Positions 3,109 through 25,614 of a DNA stretch of 64,000 bases are shown piece after piece. Under the pieces are notes generated by a model. The model was not told the origin of the DNA. It did not search any database and worked only from the letters and a program-made list of their open reading frames with translations. The position numbers and the translations under genes were made by a program. Position 1 is the stretch's first letter. Every line of letters starts with the position of its first letter. This DNA comes from an uncultured virus (IMG/VR IMGVR_UViG_3300043086_000101) (lineage: Duplodnaviria; Heunggongvirae; Uroviricota; Caudoviricetes): IMG/VR virus record IMGVR_UViG_3300043086_000101; one strand, written 5' to 3'.

Positions 3109-3873
3109 TTGAGGAATAAAGGAAAAAAAATAACGAGGGTTATAATATTGGCTCTTGTATGCATGTTATTTGTACCTAGTCTAGCATATGCTAATACTGG
3201 AGAACTTCGTGCAAAGTTAAATCTAGTTGAAAATGAAAATAGTAATATATTTGAACAAAAACTAGATGAAGAAAAGACAGAATTTATTGAAGATGCTGAA
3301 TCAAAGTTTGATACATGGGAAGAGTATCTTACTAGTACTCAGATTGATTTATATAATGATTTGATTGATAAAGCATTTTCTGCTTCTTCTTTAGGAGAGA
3401 TTGAAAATTACAGGTCTAGTATAGATTCTATTATGACCAAGGGAGAAGAGGCAAAAGAGAAAGCAGAGGAACAAGCTAGAATTGCGGCTGAAGATGCTAA
3501 AAAAGCTAAAGCATCTGAAGAAGCTAAAACCGCACAGCAAAGTTCCACCACTTCAAATACACCAACCAATAGCACCAGTGAAAATGAACAATCTTCTTCT
3601 ATTGGTATGACAGGACAACAATTCAAATCTGCGGGAGTTGTCTATATGAATGGTATTAGATATACTTACTATAGTAGTAGGGTATTGTATCATTATAGGA
3701 CTTCTGAGTGGTATGTAGATTCTAACGGCTTTTATAGGACCGCAGATGGGTATTTAGTTGTTGCTTGTTACTTTTTGCCGCAAGGCTCTACAGTATCTAC
3801 TCCTTGGGGAACGGGTATGGTATTAGATAGTGGAGCTGGCAGCAATACAGTAGATATGTATGTTTGCTTTTAA
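3109..3873 (+). CDS. Secreted protein with coiled coil, Ser/Thr linker and C-terminal 3D-like (lytic transglycosylase-related) domain
   Basis: Signal peptide ending AYA; C-terminal LPQGSTVSTPWGTGMVLDSG...VDMYV resembles the 3D/double-psi barrel pattern. Confidence 0.65.
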   Translation: MRNKGKKITRVIILALVCMLFVPSLAYANTGELRAKLNLVENENSNIFEQKLDEEKTEFIEDAESKFDTWEEYLTSTQIDLYNDLIDKAFSASSLGEIENYRSSIDSIMTKGEEAKEKAEEQARIAAEDAKKAKASEEAKTAQQSSTTSNTPTNSTSENEQSSSIGMTGQQFKSAGVVYMNGIRYTYYSSRVLYHYRTSEWYVDSNGFYRTADGYLVVACYFLPQGSTVSTPWGTGMVLDSGAGSNTVDMYVCF

Positions 3874-3897
3874 GGTGCATGTTATAAGGGAGATATA

Positions 3898-4278
3898 ATG
3901 TCTATCAAGAATAATGAAAAGAAACTGAAATTTTTATTCATTATTGTTGCGGCAATTATTGTAATTTCTTTGTGTCTTGTTATTTTTTCATGTAATCAAA
4001 AGCAAACTACTAATATGATTATTCAGCATGAAGAAAATAATAGTAATCCTTCGATAGATGTACAAGGTGATGTTATCTATCATAATATTACTATTTATGA
4101 TGGAAATGGAAGTATTGTAGCTAACTATAAAGGTAAGTATAATGCACTTCGCAATGGTGAAATATTAACCTTGACAGATGATACTAGTAATGATATAATT
4201 ACTATATCACTGGGAGAGAATTATACTATTGTAGATATTGCGGGAAGTGCAAATGATACAATTGCCACTGTTAGTTAG
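3898..4278 (+). CDS. Membrane-anchored or lipoprotein hypothetical
   Basis: N-terminal hydrophobic helix ending IFSC; AAGGGGAG RBS. Confidence 0.7.
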   Translation: MSIKNNEKKLKFLFIIVAAIIVISLCLVIFSCNQKQTTNMIIQHEENNSNPSIDVQGDVIYHNITIYDGNGSIVANYKGKYNALRNGEILTLTDDTSNDIITISLGENYTIVDIAGSANDTIATVS

Positions 4279-4286
4279 GAGATATA

Positions 4287-4583
4287 ATGAAACCATATGG
4301 AATAAATATTAATGCTAGTTTTGTTGAAACAGACAATGGATGTGAAGTTGCAGTTAAGCTCGATGATAGTGAAGGTTTACAATTAGCAAAACGAGTTAAA
4401 GGCAATGATGCAGAAAAATGTTTGGAAGCTATGTATAAGGTTATTGCCCAAGAAATGATTGTGCATAAACTAGGAGATAATAAGAATTGCGAAGATAGTA
4501 GTCTTGAAGATTACGCTCGTCAAGAAAAAGTGACACCAAAGACTACTAAGAACCGCATTAATATTTTTAAAGATTGGTTTTAA
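4287..4583 (+). CDS. Hypothetical protein
   Basis: AGGAG RBS, tight operon spacing. Confidence 0.7.
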   Translation: MKPYGININASFVETDNGCEVAVKLDDSEGLQLAKRVKGNDAEKCLEAMYKVIAQEMIVHKLGDNKNCEDSSLEDYARQEKVTPKTTKNRINIFKDWF

Positions 4584-11142: not shown

Positions 11143-11172
11143 TTGACTCTTGGATTAAAAATATGTTATAAT
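11143..11172 (+). promoter_or_regulatory. sigma70-type promoter
   Basis: TTGACT-N18-TATAAT with TG. Confidence 0.8.
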
Positions 11173-11435: not shown

Positions 11436-11465
11436 TTGACAATATATTATAATTTATGTTATAAT
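11436..11465 (+). promoter_or_regulatory. sigma70-type promoter of the ncRNA/tRNA transcript
   Basis: TTGACA-N18-TATAAT with TG. Confidence 0.8.
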
Positions 11466-11471
11466 ATAAAT

Positions 11472-11826
11472 AACAAGTTGAGAGATTTGTTGAAGGTTTG
11501 GGTCAAGCAAAAGCTAATATAGTAATTTTTTATAAGATACCTCAATAGAGTCTTCGTTTTTCTTATAAAAGGTCTACTATTACCTAAATGAGTAACTTAA
11601 CCAACTACTCACTTTGCGGAGATGGATTCCCGCATCGTAAAATGTTATGGAGGTCCGTGAGCGGTCATGTGCTGGTGAAGTTGCATTGGTGTTTTCCAAC
11701 TGATGTAAATCGAGGGACAACAGCTTGCCTACACAATAGTTTGTTATATATTGTTACCTAGAAAAGCAATATATCCTTTCTATAGGGTGATATAGAGTAT
11801 GATAAGCTAGATTTTTAGCCTATCAT
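11472..11826 (+). ncRNA. Candidate structured non-coding RNA, family unassigned
   Basis: About 350 nt with no ORF of 60 aa or more between a strong promoter and tRNA-Ser; several stems readable by eye. Confidence 0.45.
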
Positions 11827-11828
11827 GC

Positions 11829-11917
11829 GGAAAAGTGGCAGAGTGGTTGATTGCGTTCGCCTGCTAAGCGAATAATGGGTGAAAATCCATTCACGAGTTC
11901 AAATCTCGTCTTTTCCG
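11829..11917 (+). tRNA. tRNA-Ser(GCT)
   Basis: GGAAAAG/CTTTTCC acceptor, TTCGC-CTGCTAA-GCGAA anticodon arm, long variable arm, TTCAAAT T-loop; no encoded CCA. Confidence 0.92.
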
Positions 11918-11935
11918 CATGGTAGTATATACAGT

Positions 11936-12008
11936 GGACCTATAGCATAATGGTCAATGCAGCCGACTCATAATCGGTTGAGTGTAGGTTCAAATCCTAC
12001 TGGGTCCA
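11936..12008 (+). tRNA. tRNA(CAT), most likely Ile2 (lysidine type) rather than Met
   Basis: GGACCTA/TGGGTCC acceptor, CTCATAA loop, A73; the GGACC start resembles Firmicutes tRNA-Ile2. Confidence 0.88.
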
Positions 12009-12038
12009 CTGTATATATTAAATGTGAATATGTATTGT

Positions 12039-12121
12039 GGGCTAGTGGCGAAATGGCAAACGCGGTGGACTTAAAATCCACTTCTCGTGAGAGGTTGAGG
12101 GTTCGAGTCCCTCCTGGCCTA
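12039..12121 (+). tRNA. tRNA-Leu(TAA)
   Basis: GTGGA-CTTAAAA-TCCAC anticodon arm, variable arm, GAGGG-TTCGAGT-CCCTC T arm. Confidence 0.92.
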
Positions 12122-12149
12122 CAATGCATATTTGCAAATTATTATCAGA

Positions 12150-12222
12150 CACTCCTTAGCTTAGCAGGTAAAGCAGAGGACTTTTAATCCTAAGAGCATC
12201 GGTTCGATTCCGATAGGAGTGA
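12150..12222 (+). tRNA. tRNA-Lys(TTT)
   Basis: CACTCCT/AGGAGTG acceptor, CTTTTAA loop, ATCGG-TTCGATT-CCGAT T arm. Confidence 0.88.
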
Positions 12223-12249
12223 CTGATGATAGTCAATGCTATACTACGA

Positions 12250-12323
12250 GCGGCGTTACCTCAGTTGGATAGAGGAGAAGACTTCTAATCTTTTTGTCAC
12301 AGGTTCGAGTCCTGTACGCCGCA
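12250..12323 (+). tRNA. tRNA-Arg(TCT)
   Basis: GCGGCGT/ACGCCGC acceptor, CTTCTAA loop, ACAGG-TTCGAGT-CCTGT T arm. Confidence 0.92.
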
Positions 12324-12340
12324 CGTAGTATAGTTAATAT

Positions 12341-12416
12341 GCTGCAATAGCTCAGTCGGCAGAGCACTTCGTTGGTAATTAAGAGGTCCACAGTTCAATA
12401 CTGTGTTGCAGCTCCA
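12341..12416 (+). tRNA. tRNA-Thr(GGT) with imperfect anticodon stem and encoded CCA
   Basis: GCTGCAA/TTGCAGC acceptor + TCCA; loop TTGGTAA; stem CTTCG/TTAAG has a C:T mismatch. Confidence 0.8.
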
Positions 12417-12447
12417 TCTATAATCTTGTTTACGAGTGGAGAATATT

Positions 12448-12630
12448 ATGTCTAAAAAGAAAAAGAAATTTTCTATAGGCAAAATTACATCGGAGCAGCA
12501 ATTTGAAATGTCTAAACCAAAGTGGAATGGATATAATTGCGGCACTGGTGTTCATGGTGACGTATCATATAATAGACGAAAGTTTAAAAAGGATACTAAT
12601 CACATTATTAACGAGGATTGGCAACACTAG
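12448..12630 (+). CDS. Small basic protein, candidate ArfA-like ribosome rescue factor
   Basis: GGAG RBS, ATG 12448, 60 aa; GxI...PxW...GxxSYNRRK pattern; the TAG stop is nt 1-3 of tRNA-Gln. Confidence 0.6.
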   Translation: MSKKKKKFSIGKITSEQQFEMSKPKWNGYNCGTGVHGDVSYNRRKFKKDTNHIINEDWQH

Positions 12631-12698
12631 ACTATGGTGTAATGGTAACACTACAGGTTTTGGTCCTGTCATTCATGGTTCGAGTCCATGTAGTCTAG
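12628..12698 (+). tRNA. tRNA-Gln(TTG)
   Basis: TAGACTA/TAGTCTA acceptor (U1-A72), ACAGG-TTTTGGT-CCTGT anticodon arm, CATGG-TTCGAGT-CCATG T arm, G73. Confidence 0.92.
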
Positions 12699-12747
12699 CG
12701 TTGCTAATCTAGCATTTAAAATTAAATAATTAAAGAAAGGTTATAAA

Positions 12748-12939
12748 ATGAAGATTGACCCTCGTGACTACGAGTCCTATGATGACTTCTATGAGGAAGA
12801 ATATCCACGTAAACCAAAGCTACATTATAATGATGTAGCTAAGCACCGCAAAGGTTCAGATATTCGTAACAAGCGACTTGAAAAAGAACGCTGGAAGGAT
12901 AACGAATCTGACAAGGATATTGATTCATTTAACCTATAA
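12748..12939 (+). CDS. Small charged hypothetical protein
   Basis: GAAAGG RBS, 63 aa, followed by a terminator. Confidence 0.65.
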   Translation: MKIDPRDYESYDDFYEEEYPRKPKLHYNDVAKHRKGSDIRNKRLEKERWKDNESDKDIDSFNL

Positions 12940-12945
12940 TTTTAG

Positions 12946-12976
12946 AAAAGCCTTCCGTTTGGAGGGCTTTTCTTTT
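12946..12976 (+). terminator. Intrinsic terminator
   Basis: AAAAGCCTTCC/GGAGGGCTTTT stem plus T tract. Confidence 0.75.
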
Positions 12977-13085
12977 ATTCCTTCAAATTTGACCGTGGCG
13001 TCGAAGAAAATATGCTACAGAAATTTTTAATCCAATTTTGCCCAAATAATTTTGTTATATATTTTTCCCGAAACTAAGGAGTATT

Positions 13086-13526
13086 ATGCACAAGAAGATT
13101 CTAAGTTCTGATTACAACCCTGAAACTGGTATTAGTACTGTTACTCTCGTTGACCAGTGGGGTACTCATACTGCAACTGCCAAGCTTCACCCAGAAGATA
13201 GTGATGTTGCAAACATGTGGGATGGTTGTGCAGCCGCACATTACAAGGCAGAACTAAAGTCTATGAAGAAGAAGATTAAGGCGATGCGTGAACGTAAGCG
13301 CGGTGCGGAAATTCTATTTAATAATCTAGCTGAAAATACTCTTCCAGACGACGCTACTCTTGCTCGCGCAAAACGTCAGGTAGAAGTTATGGGTCGTGAA
13401 CTTAGTCTTCTCCAAGGGCAATATCATGATATGAAGCATAACTATCATGCTGTCATTGAGCACAGTCTAAATGGCAAGCGTGAATTCCGCAAGAAGATGA
13501 CAGATAAAGAAAATGTGGATGAATAA
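13086..13526 (+). CDS. Hypothetical protein (beta N-domain plus coiled coil)
   Basis: AAGGAG RBS, 146 aa. Confidence 0.75.
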   Translation: MHKKILSSDYNPETGISTVTLVDQWGTHTATAKLHPEDSDVANMWDGCAAAHYKAELKSMKKKIKAMRERKRGAEILFNNLAENTLPDDATLARAKRQVEVMGRELSLLQGQYHDMKHNYHAVIEHSLNGKREFRKKMTDKENVDE

Positions 13527-13592: not shown

Positions 13593-14762
13593 ATGTTTAA
13601 TAATCCTGTTGCGGACTATGTTTTTGATTTTAAGCATAATTATCAGAATAAGCATCCTTTTGATGGAGAGTATAGTTGGATTGATGCTCTTCATCGTGAT
13701 AATCGCATGTCTCCTCTTATCATCAGTACTTATAAGAATTATATGATTATTAAGTATCGTTCTTTGACTGAATCTTTTGAAGACCCAGAATTTTGGGATA
13801 AGTATGACCAGTTTTATCAGTATTCTCGTTCTCTGGTTATAGACTTTAAGAATGAGAATATTGTTCTTTGGCCTTATAAGAAGTTTTTTAATATTAATGA
13901 ACGCGCGGAAACTAGCTATGAAAATATTATTTCCCGCATGGAAAATGCTCATGATGTATATTTTTCTGAAAAGCTTGATGGTTCTTATATTGCAGCTACT
14001 TTTTATATGGGTGAATTTGTAGTATCTTCATCTTCTGGAATTGATCCATCTACCAATGGTTATGTAGAGTATGCCTATAATTATATTTCTAATCATGACA
14101 ATGTGCGGATTATGCTTGAAGAGGGTGAAGGTTTTACTTATATATTTGAACTTATTGAACCAGATTTTGACCAGCATGTAGTAGATTATTCTAACATTGA
14201 ACATGGTCTGTATCTTACTGGCGTAATTGATAATGAGATTGGAGTTAGCCTTAATCCGCGGCAGGTAGTAGAATTAGCAGAAGAATATGATGTACTTCAT
14301 GCTAATGTGGTAGATGATACTATTTATCACATTCTTTCTACTCTTGGTGATGTACCATCTAATGAAGCAGAAGGTTTTGTACTATATATTGACGGATTTC
14401 GTGTAAAGATTAAGTATGATTCATACGTTGAGCTTCATGGAGTTCTTAGTGCAATTAAGTCTCCTAAGCTTACTATTGCGGCTATGCGTGCTGGAAATTT
14501 AGATGATTTTATTTCTAAGATTCCTGCGGCATATCATGACATCGTTATGTCTTATGTACATGATGCTGTAGAGTATGAAGAACATATGATTGAGACTGTT
14601 CTTGATTATATGGAGAAGATGTATTCTAGCATTGGCCGCAATCCTTCTCGTAAGGAAGCGATGATATATATTACTGAAAATATGCCAAAGGAAATTCAAG
14701 CATATGCTCGTAATATATTTCTTGGCCGCAAGAATGATTATCTAAAGCATTACAAGGGTTAA
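13593..14762 (+). CDS. RNA ligase, T4 Rnl1-like
   Basis: KFFNINE, motif I EKLDGS, FELI, EGFVL, VKIK. Confidence 0.88.
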   Translation: MFNNPVADYVFDFKHNYQNKHPFDGEYSWIDALHRDNRMSPLIISTYKNYMIIKYRSLTESFEDPEFWDKYDQFYQYSRSLVIDFKNENIVLWPYKKFFNINERAETSYENIISRMENAHDVYFSEKLDGSYIAATFYMGEFVVSSSSGIDPSTNGYVEYAYNYISNHDNVRIMLEEGEGFTYIFELIEPDFDQHVVDYSNIEHGLYLTGVIDNEIGVSLNPRQVVELAEEYDVLHANVVDDTIYHILSTLGDVPSNEAEGFVLYIDGFRVKIKYDSYVELHGVLSAIKSPKLTIAAMRAGNLDDFISKIPAAYHDIVMSYVHDAVEYEEHMIETVLDYMEKMYSSIGRNPSRKEAMIYITENMPKEIQAYARNIFLGRKNDYLKHYKG

Positions 14763-14869: not shown

Positions 14870-15322
14870 ATGGATAAGCCTACTGTTTTCATTATGTGCG
14901 GACCTGCTGGTTGCGGGAAAACTACTGTTGCACATTCCATTGCTGCTACTTATGATGCAGAAATCTTTTCCTCAGATGATATGCGTGAGCAGCTGTATGG
15001 TGATTCTTCAATCCAAGGTGATGCTGATGAGGTTTTCCGCAATCTCTATGCTGCAGCCCGCATATCAGTTAGCACTGGCAAAAATGTAGTTATTGATTCT
15101 ACTTCTCTTGGACGCAAAGTCCGCAAGCGTTGTATGCGCAACTTTGATGGAGTTGATTTTGTCGCTGTTGTAGTTACTGCTTCTCTTGAAACTGCACTTC
15201 GACAGAATGAAAACCGCAAGCGTAAGGTTCCTCGCTACATCATCGAACGACAGTTTAAGCAGTTTAATCCTCCAACTGAGGATGAAGGTTTTGTTAAGAT
15301 TTTGGAATATCGGAGGTATTAA
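14870..15322 (+). CDS. Polynucleotide kinase-like P-loop protein (AAA_33)
   Basis: GPAGCGKTT, SSDDMR, VVIDST, RQNENR...VP. Confidence 0.85.
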   Translation: MDKPTVFIMCGPAGCGKTTVAHSIAATYDAEIFSSDDMREQLYGDSSIQGDADEVFRNLYAAARISVSTGKNVVIDSTSLGRKVRKRCMRNFDGVDFVAVVVTASLETALRQNENRKRKVPRYIIERQFKQFNPPTEDEGFVKILEYRRY

Positions 15323-15873
15323 TGATATATTTCACGTCTGACCTCCACATAGGTCATGACCAACCTTTTATCTGGCGTTCTCGTGGATTTTCTTCTATTG
15401 AAGAACATGATGAAGCTATTATAGACAATATCAACAAGACAGTTGATAAAGGAGACACTCTTATTGTGCTTGGTGATTTGTCTCTTGGACCTCTTGAGAA
15501 CGTCCATAAATTGTCTTATATAGACTTTACTGTCAAGGTTAAGGTTTTAATTGGAAATCATGATTCATTTCCTCGTTTAGATGCATATGATAATATTGGA
15601 TTTGATACTACCTCTTTTGGCTATGCTAGTCCTTTTACATATCATAAGTGGAAGTTCATGCTTTCACATTATCCAATGCTAACGACTAATTTTGACGATA
15701 AGGGAGTGCGGAATCGAGTTTGGAATCTGCATGGTCATACTCACAGTAAGGATAAGCTAGAACTTTGGCCGCAGGCTGGTATAAATGTTGGAGTAGATGC
15801 CAATAATCTTTGTCCGATTTCTATTGAAGAAATTATTGAAACTATTAGGGAGACTTGGAACGATGAACATTAA
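15322..15873 (+). CDS. Calcineurin-like metallophosphoesterase
   Basis: Intact DLHIGH, GD, GNHD, HYP, HGHTH and INVGVD motifs. Confidence 0.9.
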   Translation: MIYFTSDLHIGHDQPFIWRSRGFSSIEEHDEAIIDNINKTVDKGDTLIVLGDLSLGPLENVHKLSYIDFTVKVKVLIGNHDSFPRLDAYDNIGFDTTSFGYASPFTYHKWKFMLSHYPMLTTNFDDKGVRNRVWNLHGHTHSKDKLELWPQAGINVGVDANNLCPISIEEIIETIRETWNDEH

Positions 15874-21926: not shown

Positions 21927-22895
21927 ATGTATGCCATAATTATTACTTGCCTTGTATTAATCATAGTGGCTAGTATTGTATTCTACAAAATAGGAGAACA
22001 TAAAAAGGTTGTAATAGAATTTGAAAAATCTAATGCGGCCTTTGAGCAGGAAAAAGAAAAGCTTAAAAAAGATATTGATATTCTAAATCAATCTATTCAA
22101 GTTAAAAATCAAAATCTAAATCTTGCTCGACAAAGAATAGAAGAAATTAATCTTGAATATCAAGATAAGCGGCAAATGATTAATGATGCTTCAGACTTGG
22201 CCCGCAAAGAACATGAAGAAAAATCTGCCGCATATCAACAACAATATGAATCTTCTATTCTTCTATTGGATAAAGAATATAAAGAAAAAAATGACATATT
22301 AGATAATGAATATATTACTAAGAAAGAAAGCTATGATGCGGAAATTGAAACCTTAATTTCTCAGCTAAAATCTTTGCAGAATCAGAAGGCTGCGACTATT
22401 GAAGCACTAGAACGAGAGCAGGCTGTGCGGGAACAAGCTAATCTATATAGGCTTGATATATCTGAACAAGATAAACAAGATGTAAAATTTTTACAATCTA
22501 TTCAATATAGGATTAGTAAGCCACGAGTTGTTGCTATGCTAATTTGGCAAACATATTATCAACCAATAGCAAAGAAGAAATTTCCTCTTATTCTAGGCAC
22601 AGAAAAAGTGTGCGGCATTTATAAGATTACAAATATGGATAATCAAAAAGTATATATAGGTCAAGCAGTAGATATGCGGGAACGATGGCTACAACATTGT
22701 AAAAAAGGTTTAGGTATTGATACTCCGCAGAATAATAAACTATATGCGGCCATGCTACAAGATGGACTAGAGAATTTTACTTTTGAGCTATTGGAGTCTT
22801 GTGAACCTTCTGAACTAAATGAAAAAGAAAAGTATTATATTAATCTTTATAATGCTTGTGAATATGGATATAACCTTACATCTGGTAATAATTAA
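21927..22895 (+). CDS. Membrane-anchored coiled-coil protein with C-terminal GIY-YIG nuclease domain
   Basis: N-terminal TM helix, heptad-rich middle, GIYKITN...VYIGQA...RW..H...E..EKYYI...GYN. Confidence 0.85.
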   Translation: MYAIIITCLVLIIVASIVFYKIGEHKKVVIEFEKSNAAFEQEKEKLKKDIDILNQSIQVKNQNLNLARQRIEEINLEYQDKRQMINDASDLARKEHEEKSAAYQQQYESSILLLDKEYKEKNDILDNEYITKKESYDAEIETLISQLKSLQNQKAATIEALEREQAVREQANLYRLDISEQDKQDVKFLQSIQYRISKPRVVAMLIWQTYYQPIAKKKFPLILGTEKVCGIYKITNMDNQKVYIGQAVDMRERWLQHCKKGLGIDTPQNNKLYAAMLQDGLENFTFELLESCEPSELNEKEKYYINLYNACEYGYNLTSGNN

Positions 22896-24732: not shown

Positions 24733-25614
24733 ATGCCTTCACGTAAATATAACGAAGGAGATTTAATAGGCCCGAATAATATTTTATTGCTTAAAAGACT
24801 TCCAAATGAGGGGCATAATACTTATGCATTGTTTAAATGTCCCTCATGCGGAAAGGAATTTAAATCTCAAATTTCTCCAGTCGTAAAAGGAATAGTAAAA
24901 AGTTGTGGATGCCAGCGGCATAATAAAGAAAATTTTCAAAAATATAAAGCAGGAGATTTAGTAGGTCCATATAATATTTTAATGGTAGAAAGAACAAAAA
25001 TAATACAAAATCATTCATACGGGAAGTTTATTTGCCCATATCACGATGATTCAAATCATATCTTTGAAACAAGAATTGAATCTGTTGTTTCTGGTCATAC
25101 TCGTAGTTGCGGATGTCAAACTTCTATGATAGATTATACTGGAACTAGATTTGGAAAACTTGTTGCTATAGAGCCAACTAGCTATAAGAATGGTACAAAT
25201 GTTTACTGGAAAATGCGGTGTGATTGCGGCAATATATGTTATGTTTCATCTGACCATATTAAAAATACTAAATCATGTGGATGTATAAGTTCAAAAGGAA
25301 ATTTAGCAATAAGAGAAATATTAAATGATCTAAATATCTTTTTTATTGCAGAATATAGGTTTAAAGATTGTAAAAACATCAATACGCTACCTTTTGATTT
25401 TTTCTTACCAGAACTTAATACTTGTATTGAGTACGATGGAGAACAACATTTTAATGCAATAGATGCATGGGGTGGAATAGAAAAGTTACAAAAACAACAA
25501 AATAATGATACCATTAAAAATAAATATTGTGAAAAAAATAATATAAAATTAATTAGGATACCTTACTATGATTTTGAACAATTAGATAACAATTATATAC
25601 TAAGGAGATTGTAA
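24733..25614 (+). CDS. Free-standing putative homing endonuclease (Cys-rich repeats plus Vsr/DUF559-like PD-(D/E)xK domain)
   Basis: Three repeats ending SCGC; LPFDFFLP...IEYDGEQHF...KNKYC...LIRIPY. Confidence 0.8.
   Translation: MPSRKYNEGDLIGPNNILLLKRLPNEGHNTYALFKCPSCGKEFKSQISPVVKGIVKSCGCQRHNKENFQKYKAGDLVGPYNILMVERTKIIQNHSYGKFICPYHDDSNHIFETRIESVVSGHTRSCGCQTSMIDYTGTRFGKLVAIEPTSYKNGTNVYWKMRCDCGNICYVSSDHIKNTKSCGCISSKGNLAIREILNDLNIFFIAEYRFKDCKNINTLPFDFFLPELNTCIEYDGEQHFNAIDAWGGIEKLQKQQNNDTIKNKYCEKNNIKLIRIPYYDFEQLDNNYILRRL

Follow-up and report, generated by a model that had tools for sequence, protein, structure and literature searches.

A reading frame of 60 codons in the genome of an uncultured phage ends exactly where a tRNA gene begins, and the small basic protein it encodes belongs to an unnamed family whose bacterial branch appears to be built for translation from mRNA with no stop codon. 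The reading frame was found in IMG/VR record IMGVR_UViG_3300043086_000101 (Caudoviricetes), and "the window" below means the whole stretch of that record which was analysed, 64,000 nucleotides long. The best explanation of these observations has two parts: the family consists of ribosome-rescue factors, and RNase P makes the stop-less mRNA in the window. Taken as a whole, this explanation stands in our judgement about evenly between right and wrong.

A stop codon shared with a tRNA gene

The window contains an array of seven tRNA genes on the + strand. Six of them, Ser-gct, Met-cat, Leu-taa, Lys-ttt, Arg-tct and Thr-ggt, were located by ARAGORN and Rfam at 11829..12416, and the last of these, tRNA-Thr (12341-12416), has a CCA encoded at its end. 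The seventh is tRNA-Gln (anticodon ttg, no encoded CCA), placed by ARAGORN at 12628..12699 on the + strand. The Rfam tRNA model matches it over 12628-12698 with 59.6 bits, where the gathering score is 29, and its cloverleaf, UUG anticodon and U1-A72 pair are those of a tRNA-Gln. In the Rfam alignment the acceptor stem UAGACUA/UAGUCUA forms seven Watson-Crick pairs, including A2-U71, and the discriminator base is G.

The spacer between tRNA-Thr and tRNA-Gln measures 211 nt, while the other five spacers of the array measure 16-29 nt. It consists of a 31-nt leader (12417..12447, + strand), with GGAG at 12438-12441, 6 nt 5' of the ATG, followed by the ORF. The ORF (12448..12630, + strand) starts with ATG at 12448, runs for 60 sense codons up to CAC at 12625-12627, and ends with TAG at 12628-12630. 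By both the ORF and the tRNA boundaries, this TAG serves both as stop codon of the ORF and as nucleotides 1-3 of tRNA-Gln, so a cut at 12627/12628 would take away only the stop codon. RNase P makes the 5' ends of tRNAs, and from the way such ends are made its cut would be expected at 12627/12628. An earlier note on this DNA, made from its letters alone, had described the 60-aa basic ORF that fills the Thr-Gln spacer, the sharing of its TAG with the tRNA, and the RNase P cut that would strip only the stop; the boundaries from ARAGORN, Rfam and the ORF list agree with all of this.

The ORF and the tRNAs probably form one operon. A promoter-like site, TTGACA-18-TATAAT with a TG, lies 5' of the tRNA array at 11436..11465 (+ strand); it matches 12 of 12 consensus positions, is known by this consensus match only, and probably marks where the operon starts. 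A second promoter-like site, at 11143-11172, is also a consensus match (11 of 12). At the other end, a 63-aa ORF (12748..12939, + strand), whose highly charged product has no Pfam or PHROG family, stands directly 3' of tRNA-Gln as the last gene ahead of a terminator-like hairpin of 13 pairs and a T-run (12944..12973, + strand, from a signal scan), the likely end of the operon. The scan of the window found no promoter-like site between the ORF start and tRNA-Gln, which implies that tRNA-Gln is reached by transcription through the ORF. The same scan found no hairpin or T-run within 12448-12627; where brfA has an internal terminator, the ORF in the window has the tRNA.

Genes for RNA repair follow within 3 kb 3' of the array, all on the + strand: an Rnl1-type RNA ligase at 13593..14762 (PF09511, 5.5e-27; phrog_562), a polynucleotide kinase-like P-loop protein at 14870..15322 (phrog_505, 8.6e-19) and a phosphoesterase at 15322..15873 (phrog_547). 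These three assignments agree with the "translation-protection" context of tRNAs beside RNA repair genes that was pointed out before.

Some further features of the phage were observed. Contigs from RNA libraries of three runs join 12134 to 12234/12235 and skip 99-100 nt, so there are strain variants that lack tRNA-Lys (12150-12223). Two genes that resemble homing endonucleases, GIY-YIG at 21927-22895 and HNH at 24733-25614, lie among the replication genes, and the G+C content of the phage is about 33.6 %.

Strain variants and close relatives

Strain variants are represented by contigs from public runs that share about 95 % identity with the window and span positions 12235-12877 and 12235-12848; the breaks between them fall at branch points of strain variants. 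They contain no indels inside the ORF. The 19 ORF substitutions among the differences listed divide into 16 synonymous ones, at third positions, and 3 non-synonymous ones (binomial p = 5.6e-10, on the basis of 32 synonymous sites among the 180 of the ORF), with 36 further differences beyond those listed. All three replacements (I10V, N30S and H52R, again among the differences listed) are conservative. Based on these counts, the ORF in the window is a real gene under purifying selection. The segment 12613-12640, which spans the junction of ORF and tRNA, shows no change among the differences listed. Two G>A changes, at 12436 and 12441, fall in or beside the Shine-Dalgarno sequence of the variant contigs, so this sequence is not strictly conserved.

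A word-based protein search returned two homologues of 58 and 59 aa, with 53-59 % identity to the window protein. The three proteins have in common MSKKKKK, GKITS and KPxxNGxxCGxGxHGDxSYNRRK. They differ at the C-terminus: these nearest relatives end in HEAL or HEALR, and the window protein ends in EDWQH, 1-2 codons later. In one variant of the nearest relatives, a W and 7 further residues lie beyond the stop. No GenBank phage was matched by 11800-13100 in a megablast search, and tblastn of the window protein and of one relative (P0006) against phages gave either chance matches with E 2-5 or none.

An unnamed protein family

A family profile was built from three sequences, the window protein and its two homologues, and searched against 1.84 billion representatives. 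Its matches number 214 with a threshold of E <= 1e-3, and 20 of these reach E <= 1e-10. The family core is KP.YNG..CG.G.HGD.KYNR.K, and the window protein, itself one of the seeds of the profile, has it in the form KPxxNGxxCGxGxHGDxSYNRRK. Residues G34, Y41 and R43 are invariant in alignment A5, and G38 and R47 (numbered on the first sequence) in alignment A2. The cysteines and histidines are not invariant across the family, and a metal site at these residues was therefore rejected.

No Pfam or NCBIfam model was found for the window protein, its two relatives or 15 further members that were scanned, and PHROGs has no family for the window protein. The ESM Atlas holds three unnamed clusters at 0.92, one of which has DUF7230 on 13 % of its members. 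In the literature, within a limited full-text collection, there was no description of the family, of a Coriobacteriia rescue factor, or of a rescue factor encoded by a phage.

The C-termini of the family are bimodal. Short forms stop 9-17 residues past the invariant Y-x-R, with the window protein at 17. Long forms have in common a stretch ..QEGASRGSF(L/P)F about 21 residues past Y-x-R, after which 6-166 unconserved residues follow.

A terminator inside the reading frame in Coriobacteriia

One genome per species was scanned with the narrower alignment A3, as A2 is too diverse, and 80 loci were obtained. Judged by genome handle, they come from a single class, Coriobacteriia, and most are from the family that includes Adlercreutzia, Slackia, Eggerthella and Parvibacter. 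The core pattern was matched in 79 of them. In 78 of these 79 a GC-rich hairpin and T-run lie in frame, ending 56-66 nt past the core; for the 79th (L046), the contig ends inside the hairpin. The typical hairpin is GAAGGAGCCT-ctcg-GGGCTCCTTC, followed by the T-run. Only past the hairpin, between +78 and +1209 nt, does the first in-frame stop of these 78 loci follow.

RNAalifold, run on the 78 regions, gave a 9-pair stem in which 4 pairs show compensatory changes; one pair, for example, is A-U in 63 sequences and G-C in 10, and another is G-C in 71, A-U in 5 and C-G in 1. The seemingly conserved peptide ASRGSF of the long forms is thus a translated terminator. And since the terminator precedes any stop codon, the Coriobacteriia gene would be translated only from stop-less mRNA. 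This lends strong and unexpected support to the idea that the family works like ArfA and BrfA.

The genes around the Coriobacteriia loci vary from locus to locus and are metabolic and non-phage. Some genomes have two copies of the family gene: L002 and L034 lie on the same contig about 7 kb apart, the copies in G369 (G369:C4) are likewise on one contig a few kb apart, and G322 and G321 also have two matches each. At L081:2501-2732 (Slackia), the one locus of the 80 that did not match the core pattern, the family gene is frameshifted after KKPRY with the hairpin intact, either as a pseudogene or through an assembly error. Several carrier bins are titled Prevotella, Subdoligranulum, Eubacterium, Oribacterium or Agathobacter (L019, L041, L046, L075, L080); L075, L078 and L080 fall in the Coriobacteriia class or family by genome handle, and their bin titles look wrong.

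Proposed function and control

The function we predict from these sequences, with somewhat more belief than doubt, is back-up ribosome rescue of the ArfA and BrfA type. Where a ribosome has stalled because a stop-less mRNA runs out at its 3' end, a family protein would bind to it and cause release of the peptide, probably by recruiting a release factor.

In the window, the ORF would be transcribed within the tRNA operon, from the promoter-like site at 11436 to the terminator at 12944. Each RNase P cut at the 5' end of tRNA-Gln would leave an upstream mRNA that ends at 12627 and contains the whole ORF without its stop. With no separate promoter-like site found for tRNA-Gln, one stop-less ORF mRNA is implied for every mature tRNA-Gln, and we regard the physical production of such an mRNA as very likely. 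Ribosomes on this fragment would stall with an empty A site, which makes them substrates of tmRNA, and their product would receive the degradation tag of the host's tmRNA. Normal termination would be open only to ribosomes that reach the TAG ahead of the cut. The protein would then build up only under an overload of trans-translation, such as one that follows RNA damage during infection.

It is a separate claim that the phage uses this overlap for control, and one we hold with more doubt than belief. The most far-reaching version makes tRNA 5' maturation the switch, by way of the stop shared with tRNA-Gln, in a rescue family that evolved independently and is common to Coriobacteriia, where it has an in-frame terminator and replaces ArfB, and to large phages; this version is tentative and, on balance, unlikely.

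The overlap in other phages

The strongest rival keeps the same family and the same function and treats the overlap as a packing accident in the tRNA array. Termination at the TAG on the precursor would then suffice, the stop-less fragments would be waste, and trans-translation would tune nothing. The other phage copies speak for this. Eight homologues, with 35-47 % identity, were read on large IMG/VR contigs of 52-248 kb. All eight have an ordinary TAA or TAG stop, and ARAGORN found no tRNA within 2-3 kb of any of them. For 5 of the first 6, the ATG of the following gene lies within a few bases of the stop; in L082, L083, L086 and L087 it overlaps the stop or follows it within 5 nt, and in L084 a normal terminator comes after the stop. 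The earlier note had itself named homologues with ordinary stops unrelated to tRNAs as grounds for giving up its proposal, and for phages this is what the eight copies show. Phage copies in general thus need no non-stop control, and the RNase P route applies to the lineage of the window only, as something deduced from its sequence. An accident also fits the 1-2 extra residues of the window protein, if an earlier stop was lost and translation read on to the first triplet of the tRNA. The overlap is confined to one lineage, and the contigs that keep it come from strains that are about 95 % identical.

How readily such an overlap arises was surveyed in 80 IMG/VR loci with 262 tRNAs, including 64 tRNA-Gln. 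None of the 64 starts with TAG, while 16 start with TGG and 8 with TGA; the stop in the window arises from the A2-U71 pair, which is unusual among phage tRNA-Gln. An ORF of at least 30 aa ends at nucleotides 1-3 in 2 of the 262 tRNAs. These two ORFs measure 31-33 aa and have no support, so no supported ORF ends at this place in the survey. These counts speak against an accident, as do the lack of a separate promoter-like site for tRNA-Gln, which ties one stop-less ORF mRNA to each mature tRNA, and a bacterial branch that is built for non-stop expression. The overlap is nevertheless a single instance, and chance remains compatible with it. On this evidence we consider an accident unlikely, though an alternative to be taken seriously.

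The neighbours of the phage homologues are early or replication genes, such as primase, dCMP deaminase and the phrog_547 phosphoesterase. The last of these (L086:3700-4482) is found some 0.5 kb downstream from the family gene; for the window the distance downstream is 2.7 kb. L087 has an ORF at the matching place (3699-4481).

Distribution against ArfA, ArfB and tmRNA

The reading as a rescue factor was also examined through the other rescue genes of carrier genomes. In five carrier genomes, tmRNA was present in all five (142-158 bits), each had exactly two ORFs with an RF-1 domain, of 354-386 aa and corresponding to RF1 and RF2, and none had an ArfA match.

A sample of 151 genomes from the same Coriobacteriia family was then used for co-occurrence, by a Fisher test that ignores phylogeny. 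The family gene is present in 39 of the 151 genomes (two of these matches are weak), and a third RF-1-domain hit is present in 25. This third hit occurs in none of the 39 carriers as against 25 of the 112 non-carriers (p = 2.6e-4, phylogeny ignored). Three of the 25 genomes were examined, and in each the third hit is an ORF of 128-142 aa, the size of ArfB; two of the three have GGQ near the N-terminus. The remaining 87 genomes have neither the family gene nor a third RF-1 hit. Across the class, carriers number 20 of 301 genomes with profile A3 and 25 of 401 with profile A5.

These counts bear on the second rival, in which the bacterial protein is made from non-stop mRNA and is something other than a rescue factor: another small protein that binds ribosomes or RNA, for instance a regulator or a factor for stress or hibernation, with trans-translation capacity as its on-switch. 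The 87 genomes with neither gene are in its favour, because they imply that a back-up is not obligatory in this family of bacteria, and so is the lack of homology with either ArfA or a chain of solved structure (see below). Mutual exclusion with an ArfB-sized protein argues the other way. Size, charge and the lack of a compact fold resemble ArfA and BrfA; to our knowledge, arfA and brfA are the only genes known to be built for non-stop expression, and both encode rescue factors. We judge this rival improbable and keep rescue as the predicted function.

Table 1 of a survey of 15,259 genomes (PMC11633108) lists, among 3,213 Actinobacteriota, arfB in 2,245, arfA in 1 and rqcH in 0. By the arfB and arfA counts of that table, about a third of Actinobacteriota are without a known back-up.

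The release factors of these bacteria were also looked at. The usual stop-recognition tripeptide of RF2 is SPF. In ten of ten genomes of the Coriobacteriia family RF2 has SPT (L092, L094-L097, L249-L253) and RF1 has PKT (L088-L091, L093, L244-L248). When RF2 of B. subtilis was changed to SPT, as described in the BrfA paper (PMC6881298), termination was abolished and rescue was kept. A link between the family factor and the SPT motif was rejected, as the motif also occurs in non-carriers.

Relation to ArfA and predicted shape

The earlier note had read the ORF as ArfA-like on the strength of a motif of E. coli ArfA. With the ArfA sequence taken from NC_000913.3, both motif and spacing prove to have been given correctly: G9-Y39 and G11-Y41 each span 30 residues, and GKGSYMRK of ArfA faces GDVSYNRRK of the window protein. 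This resemblance carries no statistical weight. Pfam ArfA (PF03889) has no match at E <= 1 in the window protein or in 15 relatives, BLASTP of the window protein against ArfA gives nothing at E <= 100, and a profile search of the chain sequences in the PDB gives nothing at E <= 10. With hhalign, family alignments A1, A2, A5 and A7 were compared with ArfA or with an alignment of 18 ArfA sequences, and the probability was 0.1-0.3 % over 4-9 columns.

Membership in the ArfA family (PF03889) was rejected after failing with Pfam, BLASTP and hhalign, every test that was run. A diverged but true ArfA homologue, which would share the mini-motif G-x-x-S-Y-x-R-(R/K) and the G-to-Y spacing of 30 residues and whose motif stretch is exactly what the best local hhalign alignment picks, is scarcely credible when that alignment has 7-9 columns at the probability just given, Pfam and BLASTP find nothing, and the motif Ser (of SYNRRK) is Lys in most of the family.

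The structure was predicted with AF2 from a 70-sequence alignment (pLDDT 81, pTM 0.33). In the model, residues 15-22 and 43-59 are helical, the conserved Gly-rich loop connects these two helices, and there is no compact fold. A Foldseek search of the pdb set gave one match with E = 7.9, and in a wide fold search the best Z was 2.5 and all matches were long-helix look-alikes. With a model that is not compact, such fold searches say little. A peptide that takes its fold on the ribosome could have such a shape, but the shape proves nothing.

Of the proposal that the ORF encodes a rescue factor made from non-stop mRNA, the part that concerned descent from ArfA has fallen away. The part that concerned function has gained, from the in-frame terminator in 78 of 79 bacterial loci and from the absence of an ArfA or of an ArfB-sized protein in carriers.

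Significance and comparison with known systems

As far as we know, the known back-up systems for ribosome rescue are a few narrow families only: ArfA, ArfB, ArfT, BrfA and the RQC pathway. The authors of the BrfA study suggest that many bacteria may hold rescue systems that are yet to be identified (PMC6881298). The family described here is a testable candidate for part of this back-up gap in gut Coriobacteriia. Its in-frame terminator is a purely genomic signature, for which other groups of organisms could be searched. Carried next to tRNAs and RNA-repair enzymes, the phage copy would add to the known tools with which phages sustain translation. If it is true that RNase P makes a non-stop mRNA in the window, this would couple gene expression in a new way both to the processing of tRNAs and to the capacity for trans-translation.

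A relation between ORFs and tRNAs of this kind is familiar from mitochondrial tRNA punctuation, where ORFs abut tRNAs and excision of the tRNA sets the mRNA's 3' end. There, however, excision together with polyadenylation completes the stop codon, whereas in the window excision would remove it.

ArfB (YaeJ), a rescue factor with an RF-1 domain and its own GGQ, is probably the functional alternative to the family; in the 151 genomes a third RF-1-domain hit never occurs together with the family gene. The two differ in build: ArfB has about 130-140 aa and a GGQ domain and is made from an ordinary mRNA, and the window family has no GGQ.

ArfA is closer in design. It is likewise a basic protein of about 55-72 aa that is made from stop-less mRNA and repressed by trans-translation, and it shares the short G..SY.R(K) stretch. 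The stop of the arfA mRNA is lost by RNase III cleavage or by termination at a hairpin, as described in PMC10107115, and not by tRNA processing as in the model for the window.

BrfA (YqkK), which acts in RF2-dependent rescue in Bacillus subtilis, is also a small basic protein. Experiments reported in PMC6881298 showed that a rho-independent terminator inside the coding region of brfA yields a non-stop mRNA, and that tmRNA keeps the protein low. The PDB chain search (E <= 10), in a set that may or may not include a BrfA chain, detected no sequence similarity to BrfA. The two also differ in where they occur, BrfA in Bacillaceae and the window family in Coriobacteriia and phages. They share a terminator within the coding region, present in 78 of 79 Coriobacteriia loci of the family as it is in brfA, and it is the window copy that departs from this plan, ending at a tRNA instead of an internal terminator.
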